Part shown: positions 21,853-26,014 of the stretch, piece after piece
Position numbering within the stretch: the first letter of the stretch is position 1
How the letters are laid out: each line of letters begins with the position of its first letter
Source: Promethearchaeia archaeon
GTDB taxonomy: Archaea > Asgardarchaeota > Lokiarchaeia > Sigyniarchaeales > SOKP01
Length of the DNA: 46,156 bases
Direction of reading: 5' to 3'
NCBI GenBank assembly: GCA_029856125.1
Contig: JAHQWJ010000036.1
Coordinates: forward strand, 1 to 46,156
Made by a program: the position numbers and the translations under genes
The notes under the pieces: model-generated
The model's database searches: none
Seen by the model: only the letters and a program-made list of their open reading frames with translations
Told to the model about the DNA's origin: nothing

Positions 21853-22884
21853 TTGAGTGAAATTTATATGAAATTATTTTTAGTTGATCAAGGAAACTTA
21901 TCAGAAATTTCAAAACCAATATTTTCTATGGGAGACGTTTACGTTCTTGACAATGATAACACAATTTATGTATGGATCGGAAGTAAATGTAGCGTAGACG
22001 AAAAGACAGCGGGAGCTGCTCAAGCTCGAACTTTAGACCAGCAAAGAGGTGGGGCTGCTAAAATTATTACTGTAGATGAAAACCAAGAAAGCCCTGGTTT
22101 CATGAAAGCTGTTAGTTCGATGGGCGCTATGAAGGTTGTTGAAAAGAATTACGCAAAGACACTGTTAAAAGACGTATCTACAGGAGATTGGGCAGGATTT
22201 GAAGAGTGGAGCAACATTCTTTACCGTGTTTCGGCCGAAGAATTTGATGGCATTAATTCCATGAAAATGGTTCAAGTTCCTTTTTCCAAAGACTCGTTAG
22301 ACTCTGAAGATTGTTACGTTGCTGATTTAGGCAATAAGGTATATATATGGCAAGGAAAAACTTGTAATGTTAAAGAGAAAGTCAAAGCCGGTCAATGGGC
22401 GCGTAATATTGACACAGAGAGAGCAGGGTCTCAAAACGAGAAGATTTTCGAAGAGGGAGACGACGCTGAATTCTTAGCAGCAATAGATCGTGGCAAAGAT
22501 TATAAGGAATCTGATGCAGTTCAATTAAGAGCTGAATCTGTGTTAGAACCTGAAACTGAAGCAGATAAAAGAGCTGCAGATATACAACCTGAATTTAAAT
22601 CAGAGGTTGGAGAGGCAACTGTGGACGAAATAAAAGCAGATATTGCTCAACTTAAGGAATCAAGTGCCTCAAGTGCAGGTCCAGGAATCCCCGGTTCTAA
22701 AGACGACTCACTCTTAACTATCGAAAAACCTGAAGGTCGAAGAAGATGTCCTAAGTGTGCCGAAGAAAGTAAATCTATGATCCACGAGACTATTGATAAG
22801 AGCAATATAATCTTAGATTATCCACGCGTTTATGGCAAAAAATACAAGTGTGGAAGCTGTGGAATAGAATGGAGGGAGAAGTAA
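21853..22884 (+). CDS. Asgard two-domain gelsolin-like actin regulator with C-terminal zinc ribbon
   Basis: Two gelsolin repeats (GDVYVLD..TIYVWIGSKCSVDEK; LDSEDCYVADLGNKVYIWQGKTCNVKEK), acidic linker, CPKC...CGSC. Confidence 0.9.
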   Translation: MSEIYMKLFLVDQGNLSEISKPIFSMGDVYVLDNDNTIYVWIGSKCSVDEKTAGAAQARTLDQQRGGAAKIITVDENQESPGFMKAVSSMGAMKVVEKNYAKTLLKDVSTGDWAGFEEWSNILYRVSAEEFDGINSMKMVQVPFSKDSLDSEDCYVADLGNKVYIWQGKTCNVKEKVKAGQWARNIDTERAGSQNEKIFEEGDDAEFLAAIDRGKDYKESDAVQLRAESVLEPETEADKRAADIQPEFKSEVGEATVDEIKADIAQLKESSASSAGPGIPGSKDDSLLTIEKPEGRRRCPKCAEESKSMIHETIDKSNIILDYPRVYGKKYKCGSCGIEWREK

Positions 22885-22950
22885 CCCCAAAATAAGAATT
22901 AAAATAATATTTTTTATCTTTTTTTAAAATAAAGCTAAAACTAAAGATTA

Positions 22951-24228
22951 TTACGATTTCTTAATATCTCTACGCATAATTTTGATTTTTTTCTTTAACT
23001 CGATTAGTTCTTTCTCTTTGTTTTCAAGTGCAGATTCTATTTTGAGTTTCTCATCCTTAACATTTTGCATTTCAGTTAGTATTCGGTCTTCAATTTGTTC
23101 AGATTCGTCTATTTTATTTTTCAGAACTTTCTCTTTCTCTCTTATATCTTTGATTTCTACGATTTGCTCATCAATGACATTTCTTAAATTCATTATTTCT
23201 AATTCAAATTTTCCGGTTATGTTACCAGATTTTTCTTGAGATTCTTCCAATCGAGCTTGAATTTGATTGATAAATTCATCGTTCGTTAAGTTTTTTTGGG
23301 TTAATTTCTCTACTTCTAATACCAAGTTTTTGATGCGTTCTTCTTTTTTTTCTACATCTTTTTTTACGAGGCTAAAAGTTTCTAACTTCTGCTGTAAATC
23401 TTTTATTGATTGGGTTGCTGTTTGTCGTGTGTTTTCAAGATCGAAAAGTTCTTTCTCTTTTTCAGTGATAATCTCGTCTTTTTTTTCAAGTAATATCTGT
23501 TGCTTCTCGAATTTTGATTTTTGGATTGTGTCGTTCTCTAAATATTGAATTTGTTCCATTAATTCTTTTAACTTATTTTCTTTCTCAACCACTTTCTCAG
23601 CTAATTTTTTATTCGCTTCTTGTTCTGACCTTAATTTCTCTGTGTCAGATGATACAGCGTGAATTTTTTGTGTTTGATCTGCAACTATATTATTTAATCT
23701 CTCAAGCTCTGTAGTTTGGTTTTGAATCAGTTGATCTTTCTCTTTACTCGAAGTTTGGAATTCTAAAACTTTATTATTTTTATCTTCTAACTGAGATTTT
23801 AGCGTTTCGATTTCCTTTTCTTTATTTTGAATTGATAAGCTAATCTCTGAATCATTTACTTGAGTTTCATTTAAGAAATCAATTTTCGATTCGAGATCTT
23901 TTATTAACTCGTCTTTTTGAACAACTGTTTGCAGTAAATTATCAATCGTCTCATTGTTTTCTTTTGACAATTGAATGGTTTTTTCCTTATCGTGTTGAAA
24001 AGAACCTGCTAATGCTTTGAGGCTTTCGTTTTCTTCTTTAAGATCAGTTAATTCTTCAGTTAGTTTTTTGTTCTGTTCTTTAAAGAGATTTAGCTGTTCT
24101 TTTAACGATTCTTCATCGGAAATTGGGAGTTCTTGTTCTTCCTCTTTCTCTTCAATCCATCCTAGTGAACTTAATGCATCGACCATTGATGTGTCTTCTT
24201 CTTTTTGATCTCGTTGTTCATCAGACAT
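22951..24228 (-). CDS. Long coiled-coil protein
   Basis: Near-continuous heptad-type E/K/Q/L sequence over most of 425 aa; short acidic head with LSSLGW. Confidence 0.75.
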   Translation of the reverse strand: MSDEQRDQKEEDTSMVDALSSLGWIEEKEEEQELPISDEESLKEQLNLFKEQNKKLTEELTDLKEENESLKALAGSFQHDKEKTIQLSKENNETIDNLLQTVVQKDELIKDLESKIDFLNETQVNDSEISLSIQNKEKEIETLKSQLEDKNNKVLEFQTSSKEKDQLIQNQTTELERLNNIVADQTQKIHAVSSDTEKLRSEQEANKKLAEKVVEKENKLKELMEQIQYLENDTIQKSKFEKQQILLEKKDEIITEKEKELFDLENTRQTATQSIKDLQQKLETFSLVKKDVEKKEERIKNLVLEVEKLTQKNLTNDEFINQIQARLEESQEKSGNITGKFELEIMNLRNVIDEQIVEIKDIREKEKVLKNKIDESEQIEDRILTEMQNVKDEKLKIESALENKEKELIELKKKIKIMRRDIKKS

Positions 24229-24317
24229 ACTATTAAAAATAAAAAATTACTAGTATTAAAAATTAATGGAGTAAGATAATGCTATTTTTAAACCTACCAG
24301 CCTATTTTTTGATATAC

Positions 24318-24797
24318 TCAGTATTCTTTGGTGAATACATATTTTCTGTCTAAAAAGAATTTAGTTATGTACCCAATAGAAAGAGCTATTAAAAAGCCAA
24401 CCTCTAAAGGTGCACTAAAAATGTTTGTAAAGATAAATTGGATGCCGATATTTTCAATCGTAGTTAAAATAGCAAATCCAAAGTATTTGAAAAACTCTTG
24501 TGAAGTCTCTTTGACCTTTAGACTGGTTTTTTTGAAGACCAAGTATTTATCCAAGAAAAACTTAATGACATACGTTATTCCGACTGCTACGATAGAACCT
24601 ATTAGTTCAGGCATGTTTATAGGGCTTGTGGAACAATACAAAGCTTGAATAAAATCATTTCCTCCGAACACAGAACAGATAAAGGGAGAAATAGCAAGTT
24701 CATTAATTTTTTGTATTATGTAATTTAAGAGGATCATACACGCCGCAAATAAAAAATAGAGGATCATCTGTTTCTTAATAACATTTTTTTCTGCCAT
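24318..24797 (-). CDS. GtrA-family membrane protein
   Basis: Four TMs; duplicated KFFLDKYLVF / KFFLDRKYVF motifs; EFFKYF. Confidence 0.8.
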   Translation of the reverse strand: MAEKNVIKKQMILYFLFAACMILLNYIIQKINELAISPFICSVFGGNDFIQALYCSTSPINMPELIGSIVAVGITYVIKFFLDKYLVFKKTSLKVKETSQEFFKYFGFAILTTIENIGIQFIFTNIFSAPLEVGFLIALSIGYITKFFLDRKYVFTKEY

Positions 24798-24826
24798 TTT
24801 TAATCAGATGAACTTGGATTTATGTA

Positions 24827-25444
24827 CTATTTTTTAATTCGATCTTTCCATGTATCGTTCTTAGGTTGCCCATCGCTATCCTCTTGCTCAGGCGGGAGTC
24901 TATTAGGAATTGGTCTTGTTAACTGGAGATTACCTTGCTGAGATCCTGAACCCGGGGAAAGCATACCTAAAATTTCTTTTGCTTTTTTTCGCGCGTCTTC
25001 TTTACCAGTTAGTTTCCTATAAAGTCTTTTTATTCCATAGATAATAAGACTAAAACTGATAGAGAACAAGAAGTATACAGCAAACCAACCAGAACCGAAT
25101 ATCAGTATTGGAAACGGAAGCAGATTTTGATAGTATGGTGCGTAAATAACGCCTATCAACCCAAATATCCCCATAAAAATAATACATCTTACGCATGAGG
25201 GGATCATTTGCTTTTTCATCATTACTTTCGTTAATGCCATTGATTCTCGTTGAAGTTCAAACATTTCTTGAGCGTTTCCTGTAAGTCTGGCAGTTTTCAT
25301 TCGTTCTTGTAGGCTCTTTGATTTTTCTCTCATTTCTCTTGCAGCATCCATGTTTAAACCCATAACCCTATTGAGAATCTCGCTTAATCCAACCATTGCT
25401 AAAGTAATAAACATAATTTGGATAATAATTTCTTCGTTAGCCAT
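24827..25444 (-). CDS. DUF106 / EMC3-TMCO1 (Oxa1-superfamily) membrane insertase-like protein
   Basis: TM1, Met-rich cytosolic coiled-coil, then TM2/TM3 with GWFAVYFLFS. Confidence 0.8.
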   Translation of the reverse strand: MANEEIIIQIMFITLAMVGLSEILNRVMGLNMDAAREMREKSKSLQERMKTARLTGNAQEMFELQRESMALTKVMMKKQMIPSCVRCIIFMGIFGLIGVIYAPYYQNLLPFPILIFGSGWFAVYFLFSISFSLIIYGIKRLYRKLTGKEDARKKAKEILGMLSPGSGSQQGNLQLTRPIPNRLPPEQEDSDGQPKNDTWKDRIKK

Positions 25445-25678
25445 AATATATCACTATAAAGAGAAAAGTAAGATTAAAATTAAATTTTATTATTGGTAAT
25501 TAGCAATTTCCAATTGGATTTGCTTAGTTAAAACTGGGAACACTTTGTTGAGTTGTTTTAGCATTCCTACTATGTATCTTTGGATAGAAATAATTTACAA
25601 TGATGTCCTAATCGCTGGAAATCCATCTTATTTATAAAATTTATTTTGTAGAGTATTATAAAAAAATATTGTTCTGAT

Positions 25679-26014
25679 TTAAGCTTCCGTTCCGCAATTT
25701 TTACAAATATACAATTTAGCGTAAATCTTCATTCCACCTTGCTGAAATAATACTTGAGATTTATCTTCTTCCGTGTTGAATACTGTTCCCCCACATGCAG
25801 GACAAACTCTTCTTCCTTCTACGGGTGGTTTTATTAACGCTTTTTCCTCTTCCTCTTGTTTATCAACAACAGCAGAAGGTTTAATATATTCATCGTTAGA
25901 TGGAGCTGCCGAAGGCTTCGAATCAGTTTCAACTCCTTTAGCATCAAGTAGCAAATCAAGTTTTTCGTCTAGCTTTTTGAGCAAGGTTAATACTTTTTCT
26001 TCAAACTCAGGCAT
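25679..26014 (-). CDS. Small protein: short coiled-coil, linker and zinc ribbon similar to the gelsolin C-terminus
   Basis: FEEKVLTLLKKLDEKLDLLL; KPPVEGRRVCPAC...DKS...IYAKLYICKNCG. Confidence 0.8.
   Translation of the reverse strand: MPEFEEKVLTLLKKLDEKLDLLLDAKGVETDSKPSAAPSNDEYIKPSAVVDKQEEEEKALIKPPVEGRRVCPACGGTVFNTEEDKSQVLFQQGGMKIYAKLYICKNCGTEA

Follow-up and report, generated by a model that had tools for sequence, protein, structure and literature searches.

The window analyzed here is a 46,156-nucleotide stretch of DNA from a Promethearchaeia archaeon (assembly GCA_029856125.1, contig JAHQWJ010000036.1, positions 1 to 46,156 of the forward strand). It carries a gelsolin gene and, about 3 kb away and convergent with it, an open reading frame (ORF) for a protein of 111 amino acids, and both proteins end in a small cysteine-rich module that is a predicted zinc ribbon. 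The features of the two genes are as follows.

21868..22884, + strand: two-domain gelsolin with a C-terminal Link+Zn extension, by sequence an ortholog of Loki2DGel
22522..22725, + strand: acidic low-complexity linker of the gelsolin (residues 224-291), with 16 Asp and Glu against 7 Lys and Arg and an isoelectric point (pI) of 4.27; it corresponds to the 69-residue "Link" of Loki2DGel
22726..22881, + strand: predicted zinc-ribbon module of the gelsolin (residues 292-343; CPKC...CGSC), from alignments, a profile match to 7WHG_G, an AlphaFold2 (AF2) model and Foldseek
25679..26014, - strand: 111-residue protein with an amphipathic helix (residues 1-26), an acidic linker (residues 27-62) and a predicted zinc-ribbon module, from the ORF list and orthologs in the family
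25682..25828, - strand: predicted zinc-ribbon module of the 111-residue protein (residues 63-111; CPAC...CKNC), from BLASTP against the gelsolin tail (E 6e-7) and a genome profile (E 3.8e-22)

The gelsolin reading frame has 343 codons (21853-22884, +) and is open from a TTG at 21853, but translation probably starts at the ATG at 21868, because the alignment to the solved ortholog begins at residue 6 and a length of 338 amino acids prevails among the orthologs. Pfam Gelsolin (PF00626) matches two stretches of the protein (E 4e-28, 97 bits against a cut-off of 21). In a phmmer comparison with PDB sequences, residues 6-343 aligned onto residues 1-335 of chain 7WHG_G, "Lokiarchaeota gelsolin (2DGel)," at E 1.3e-163, and further matches were Thor 2DGel3, Heim 2DGel and eukaryotic gelsolins. 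Judged by these alignments, the window gelsolin is an ortholog of Loki2DGel, whose structure was solved in a crystal with actin (PDB 7WHG) and for which actin binding and Ca regulation have been published. The architecture of gelsolin, Link and Zn domain is kept in at least 120 ortholog clusters with a length of ~338 amino acids.

The ribbons of the two proteins are clearly related. Gelsolin residues 294-339 aligned by BLASTP onto residues 66-110 of the 111-residue protein with 17 of 48 positions identical (E 6e-7), and all four cysteines, a CP.C knuckle, a DKS motif and a Y.K motif are common to both. The codon of K292, at 22726, marks the start of KPEGRRRCPKC in the gelsolin. Both ribbons are basic (pI 9.2 in the gelsolin, 8.2 in the 111-residue protein), and the linkers that precede them are acidic (pI 4.3 and 4.4, respectively, with 9 Asp and Glu against 5 Lys and Arg in the 111-residue protein). 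A seven-sequence profile finds both copies in the source genome at E 1e-22 to 1e-26; at the level of sequence, the similarity is far beyond chance. The preliminary description of this locus, which had claimed a zinc-ribbon module shared by the two proteins and placed behind acidic low-complexity linkers, is borne out on both points, and it had located the gelsolin, the 111-residue ORF and the module start at 22726 correctly. Its pairwise reading needs a correction: the closest relative of the gelsolin ribbon is carried by a 171-residue protein on another contig (58-59% identity), and the ribbon of the 111-residue neighbor reaches only 35-38%. The consensus of the seven copies in the genome is [GR]RR.CP.CG-(x5)-I.E..DK[ST].(I/V)(I/L)-(x6-8)-Y[AG]KK..C..CG.E[WF].

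The shared element is, by sequence match, the "Zn domain" already published for Lokiarchaeal two-domain gelsolins: the module profile aligns with residues 283-333 of 7WHG_G at E 4.9e-19. Akil et al. (2022; Commun Biol 5:890, PMC9433394) described, in Loki2DGel, a charged Link of 69 residues and the Zn domain, reported the domain on unrelated multidomain proteins, exclusively at the C-terminus, as well as discrete small proteins made of the Zn domain only, and pointed to a conserved Tyr on an extended loop. They proposed that the domain binds a cellular feature or complex, and it was not consistently detected outside Loki. The preliminary description had called the system possibly undescribed, which fails because the Zn domain of the gelsolin's ortholog was described in that paper; the observation and the core of its interpretation are already known. 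Our literature search found no paper on the Zn domain after Akil et al. (2022).

Across 145 aligned modules, which are 23-76% identical to the gelsolin module, the four cysteines are invariant, and the non-cysteine pairs D-K and Y-x-K are nearly so. The near invariance of D-K and Y-x-K speaks for a single conserved surface. An AF2 model of the gelsolin module, computed with these 145 modules aligned (pLDDT 83.9), predicts a three-stranded ribbon whose long hairpin is made of strands 22-33 and 38-45; the modeled tip is D-Y-P-R or variable, strand 1 bears DK and strand 2 bears Y.K, and the Tyr just past the turn (module Y39) is conserved in at least 90% of the aligned modules. By the strand register of this model, K28, Y39 and K41 would share one face of the hairpin. 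When the model was searched with Foldseek, the best matches were the C-ribbons of TFIIS, Rpb9, A12.2 and C11, followed by Rpp21 and Elf1 (1TFI, 5XON_U, 4YM7, 7OBA_I, 1QYP; TM 0.55-0.59, probability up to 0.99, E 0.17-1, the expected range for a 55-residue query and a sign of fold resemblance only). On this model, the module is a predicted C4 zinc ribbon of ~50 amino acids that has a long beta-hairpin and resembles TFIIS/Rpb9 in fold. Cofolding of the gelsolin module with the 111-residue protein's module and two Zn gave a score of 0.03 (mark 0.32), which carries no weight either way.

The source assembly (3.69 Mb), searched with either module, contains seven copies, all at the extreme C-terminus of their carriers: the gelsolin, the 111-residue protein, the 171-residue protein and four coiled-coil proteins of 137 to 415 amino acids. 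The 171-residue carrier, which has an unknown N-terminal domain, is predicted to fold as a three-helix bundle, a disordered linker and the ribbon, and its model returned nothing meaningful in Foldseek. One coiled-coil carrier, of 268 amino acids (G000:C84, L004 1498-2304, -), begins with an acidic head, followed by a PPP-rich tract, a Gln-rich coiled coil and an S/T/P linker, and ends in a ribbon of the same Zn-domain family. The 137-residue carrier (G000:C8, L005 114-665, +) has an MscS-like channel gene ~0.1 kb away and a small Ras/Rab-like GTPase gene at ~0.8 kb, the latter separated from it by a histidine-phosphatase-like gene.

Beyond the source genome, the seven-sequence profile was run against 1.84 billion representative proteins and matched 515 clusters at E<=1e-3, of which 264 reach E<=1e-10. 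In 147 of the best 149 representatives, the module stops 4-11 residues short of the C-terminus, and 10 of the 149 have a second, internal copy. Pfam recognized only generic coiled-coil families in the N-terminal parts of these 149 carriers and no domain in ten carriers without coiled coils; by a crude heptad heuristic, to be read as a trend only, coiled coil is present in 110 of 147 carriers against 32 of 147 shuffled sequences. Pfam and NCBIfam scans of the modules and stand-alone copies placed no curated family over the ribbon and gave sub-threshold matches to generic ribbons only. Seven metagenomic proteins of 287-586 amino acids (P0140, P0159, P0188, P0203, P0212, P0222, P0253) form a subfamily whose N-terminal region is Pro/Ala-rich and lysine-headed and which has two modules, one internal and one C-terminal, with a longer Gly-rich hairpin. 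The top profile match, P0128 (3179 amino acids, metagenomic, E 3e-56), was rejected as a family member; it is a repetitive protein whose 38 short matches are confined to the first CP.CG knuckle (profile positions 5-19).

A profile search of 201 genomes of the phylum found the module in all 40 genomes of the source genome's family (5-11 copies each) and at 5-7 copies in a sister family. Most other Asgard families have exactly one match (E 1e-9 to 1e-14), and in several the module was found in 1/43, 0/19, 0/10 and 0/7 searched genomes. The single matches are stand-alone ORFs of 48-66 amino acids, and their neighborhoods in five other Asgard genomes share no gene. A profile of the stand-alone form gave 140 matches among 5.8 billion proteins, and every match with a named taxon is Asgard (Odin, Heimdall, Jord, Thor, Loki/Promethearchaeota). 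This distribution fits, and does not prove, an ancestral stand-alone mini-protein that was later multiplied and fused in the source genome's order. As far as its sequences tell, the module behaves as a portable C-terminal tag.

The carriers can be compared with protein data from Candidatus Lokiarchaeum ossiferum B-35, in whose genome the profile finds eight. An anti-Lokiactin co-immunoprecipitation (co-IP) has been reported for this organism (preprint, bioRxiv 10.1101/2025.11.30.690169, Suppl. Tables 2 and 3). Carriers were mapped to its tags by the offset of UYP accessions and by the tabulated masses, which lie within 0.00-0.04 kDa of the computed ones, and seven of the eight were located in the table.

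2DGel1: tag 04136, 36.6 kDa, log2 ratio 3.97, adjusted P 0.015
374-residue carrier: tag 05159, 43.78 kDa, log2 ratio 3.85, adjusted P 0.066 (P 0.021)
57-residue module-only protein (UYP47583.1): tag 03900, 6.54 kDa, log2 ratio 2.53, adjusted P 0.004
404-residue coiled coil: tag 04980, 44.64 kDa, log2 ratio 2.10, adjusted P 0.001
330-residue carrier: tag 00612, 36.98 kDa, log2 ratio 1.91, adjusted P 0.012
62-residue module-only protein (UYP47813.1): tag 04132, 7.37 kDa, log2 ratio 1.74, adjusted P 0.029
534-residue carrier: tag 03553, 59.9 kDa, log2 ratio 0.57, adjusted P 0.17

Six of the seven located carriers are enriched, all at P<0.05, and all six pass the criterion of the co-IP authors (log2 fold change>1 and P<0.05; 10.1101/2025.11.30.690169). 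They rank 6, 9, 18, 31, 47 and 54 among the non-contaminants. With 569 tested proteins, as implied by the Benjamini-Hochberg ratios, the hypergeometric P is 4e-6 (3e-5 without the gelsolin; 3e-3 for accession-mapped non-gelsolin carriers only), values that are indicative only because the top-54 cut-off is post hoc. Two of the enriched proteins consist of almost nothing but the module, and no other result hints as strongly at an association, be it direct or indirect, of the module itself with the actin cytoskeleton. Zinc is not mentioned in either version of the co-IP paper, according to a text search. The claim of the preliminary description that the carriers are targeted to the same partner thus receives indirect support from this enrichment but stays unproven. 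Source-genome carriers are homologs of the L. ossiferum carriers at 35-44% identity, and the 111-residue ORF has no ortholog in L. ossiferum. The 404-residue carrier (L. ossiferum G216:C1:5841083-5842294, L026) is unannotated and probably GNAMCCOK_04980; among the source-genome carriers, the one on contig C28 matches it best (35% over 221 residues). The protein with tag 04980 is about the 30th most abundant in the proteome sheet (mean log2 intensity 22.6) and reached 84.7% sequence coverage in the co-IP. Tag 05159 is the last gene of the L. ossiferum genome.

Small carriers are also found repeatedly near the gelsolin gene. Orthologs of the 111-residue ORF lie on the contig of the gelsolin, convergent with it and 3-12 kb off, in at least 25 genomes of six genera, and in one genus the two genes are 165 kb apart. 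In L. ossiferum, the 62-residue module-only protein is encoded 4.3 kb from the gelsolin 3' end, and the genes between gelsolin and small carrier differ from those in the window. Two other closed genomes of the sister family have stand-alone copies ~0.2 kb and 2.4 kb from the gelsolin, and in a third family a module copy lies 2.5 kb away on the same strand. Given 7-8 carriers per 4-6 Mb, proximity by chance is expected at ~1% per genome. The recurrent proximity is therefore suggestive, and not proof, of a functional or duplicative relation between gelsolin and small carriers. In one closed genome of the sister family (G205:C1:4004433-4004914), the gelsolin gene and a 69-codon stand-alone frame point at each other with their ribbon-coding 3' ends, which are ~180 bp apart; this looks like an inverted duplication of the module.

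The 111-residue protein matches no Pfam or NCBIfam family above threshold. The preliminary description had called it a coiled-coil protein, which does not hold: a rough heptad heuristic gave no 28-residue coiled-coil window, and the helical part is at most one amphipathic helix of ~25 residues. Its ribbon belongs to a separate sub-type, KPPVEGRRVCP.C.GT.F...EDK.QVL.Q.GG.KIYAK, which also occurs in P0215, P0229, P0241 and P0265. Orthologs are found in 37/41 genomes of the source genome's family and in 1/14 genomes of a second family (f2). In the window, the ORF heads four co-directional genes (22951-26014, -) that run convergently with the gelsolin, the other three being:

24827-25444, - strand: EMC3/TMCO1-like (Oxa1-superfamily) membrane protein, Pfam E 4e-8, next after the 111-residue ORF
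24318-24797, - strand: GtrA-like protein, E 6e-11
22951-24228, - strand: 425-residue coiled-coil protein without a ribbon, between the gelsolin and the 111-residue ORF

In L. ossiferum, the 425-residue coiled coil is not conserved next to the gelsolin. An EMC3/TMCO1-like gene lies ~5 kb from one distant ortholog of the 111-residue ORF (L023), which we read as loose synteny only.

The best-supported reading, toward which we lean with moderate confidence, is that the ribbon serves as a portable docking tag at the C-terminus, linked to the Lokiactin cytoskeleton. The "modular docking domain" of the preliminary description fits everything seen: the module is portable, sits nearly always at the extreme C-terminus past a flexible linker, and is carried by gelsolin, by coiled-coil rods or alone. 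In the source genome's order, such a tag would have multiplied onto the ends of gelsolin, of many coiled-coil rods and of a few unknown domains, always past a flexible linker. The hairpin face would be the docking surface that brings the carriers to one common cellular structure, either the Lokiactin cytoskeleton itself or something attached to it. In this way, the tag would localize the Ca-regulated severing activity of gelsolin and put coiled-coil rods on the same structure, where two or more tags per rod could provide avidity. Module-only proteins and small neighbors such as the 111-residue protein may compete for the same site or serve as adaptors for it.

Several observations weigh against a docking tag tied to Lokiactin. 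In the published experiments (PMC9433394), the Zn domain of Loki2DGel did not co-sediment with F-actin, eukaryotic actin having been used, and a GFP-Loki-Tail fusion was diffuse in human cells. The co-IP comes from an organism of another (sister) family of the same order, co-purification may be indirect, the 534-residue carrier is not enriched, the eighth carrier (UYP46080.1) was not located, the top-54 cut-off was chosen after the fact, and tags 05159 and 04980 were mapped by mass and position only. As to gene linkage, the L. ossiferum neighbor is a gelsolin-type module-only protein and not an ortholog of the 111-residue ORF, and orthologs of the latter are nearly confined to the source genome's own family, where synteny could be simple inheritance. 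Furthermore, gelsolin is the only carrier with a recognized cytoskeletal (actin-binding) domain, since the others give generic coiled-coil or no Pfam domains. The search with a hidden Markov model that the preliminary description had proposed therefore gave a divided answer, as its matches are family-specific and not generic zinc ribbons, but gelsolin stands alone among them as a known cytoskeletal protein.

A more specific form of the docking proposal is possible, although we hold it only tentatively. The ribbon may be a dedicated targeting module for the Lokiactin cytoskeleton, which binds filaments directly via a surface absent from eukaryotic actin, or binds one filament-bound hub. It would then define an unrecognized, Asgard-specific set of actin-associated proteins, with the mini-proteins beside gelsolin as competitors that tune the load of gelsolin and rods on the filaments. 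If this is true, the set includes a coiled-coil protein that ranks among the most abundant of its kind in L. ossiferum. To our knowledge, almost nothing is known about binders of Asgard actin beyond profilins and gelsolins. With the domain already published, the finding as written adds little; if the tag marks actin-associated proteins, it would provide a sequence handle on ~500 clusters of coiled-coil and unknown proteins and a short list of further Asgard cytoskeleton proteins that is testable in cultured strains.

The charge of the module bears on an alternative partner. A basic ribbon (pI 8.2-9.2) past acidic linkers, with invariant K, Y and K residues, RR ahead of the first knuckle and an aromatic residue near the hairpin tip, could be a membrane or cortex tag with archaeal lipid head groups, or else a membrane protein, as its ligand, and its strictly C-terminal place on long coiled coils past flexible linkers recalls coiled-coil tethers tipped with FYVE or GRIP. 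The carriers would then appear in the co-IP only since the cortex accompanies filaments. We consider this unlikely, as the module has no hydrophobic loop and the Pfam and NCBIfam scans gave no match to a lipid-binding family; the diffuse GFP-Loki-Tail also speaks against it, with the reservation that the lipids of human cells differ.

The heterogeneity of the carriers could also be explained by the lack of any common partner. The module would be a generic stable zinc-ribbon cap or nucleic-acid-binding knob, spread by duplication and fusion and having a different role, or no specific one, in each carrier. Sub-threshold similarity to many generic ribbon families is in line with this, as are stand-alone copies in other Asgard lineages without conserved neighbors. 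The near invariance of the D-K and Y-x-K residues in 145 modules, the strict C-terminal position and the enrichment of six of the seven located carriers with Lokiactin would all be unexpected, however, and make this explanation improbable.

Less probable still is that the modules bind each other and recruit gelsolin and mini-proteins onto ribbon-bearing coiled-coil scaffolds. Many paralogous carriers per genome, a subfamily with two modules per chain and small carriers encoded beside gelsolin would suit a homotypic tag, but most other Asgard families have just one copy of the stand-alone form, which leaves it no module-bearing partner there except itself. We know of no TFIIS-type ribbon that serves as a dimerization unit. 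Finally, a transcription role in which the hairpin enters the secondary channel of RNA polymerase, as in TFS/TFIIS paralogs, is hardly credible: the structural matches favor it, as does the automatic annotation of one ortholog as "RNA polymerase subunit M/TFIIS" by one source, but Pfam Zn_ribbon_TFIIS stays below its cut-off of 21 (10.3 bits for the gelsolin module and 20.5 for a stand-alone copy), the knuckles are spaced by ~30 and not ~24 residues, an acidic DE tip is lacking, the contexts are gelsolin and coiled coils, and the carriers co-purify with actin.

Among known systems, the haloarchaeal C(P)XCG micro-proteins (HVO_2753, HVO_0758) are archaeal, 50-60 amino acids long and equipped with CPxCG-type knuckles, and the stand-alone Asgard copies look superficially like them; the sequence between the knuckles differs, and these families score 13-20 bits against Pfam/NCBIfam cut-offs of 27-80. 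With the C-ribbons of TFIIS, TFS, Rpb9, A12.2 and C11 (PF01096), the Asgard module shares a predicted three-stranded ribbon, two CxxC knuckles and a protruding beta-hairpin, which in TFIIS-type ribbons is the functional probe. The hairpin of the Asgard module is longer (~30 against ~24 residues between knuckles), its conserved residues are DK and Y.K in place of the acidic DE that TFIIS/TFS use for RNA cleavage, the sequence relationship is not significant, and the carriers are cytoskeletal or coiled-coil proteins rather than transcription factors. The villin headpiece, the FYVE domain of EEA1 and the GRIP domain of golgins follow the same logic, in which a small C-terminal module past a flexible linker localizes a gelsolin-type core or a long coiled coil; their folds are unrelated to that of the Asgard module, and the likeness is one of analogy, not homology. 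The closest system is the Zn domain of Loki2DGel (KKK44901.1) / MKD1-2DGel and of the discrete Zn-domain proteins, with which the window gelsolin shares the family, the two gelsolin domains, the acidic Link, the (CxxC)2 ribbon, the exclusively C-terminal site on unrelated proteins, the conserved Tyr on an extended hairpin and the docking hypothesis. The construct of PDB 7WHG chain G includes the Zn tail, which is unresolved in the structure. Nothing essential differs for the window gelsolin, and the sub-type of the 111-residue ORF was not singled out in that paper (PMC9433394). What goes beyond it are the stand-alone copies in other Asgard families, the gene linkage and the co-IP pattern.

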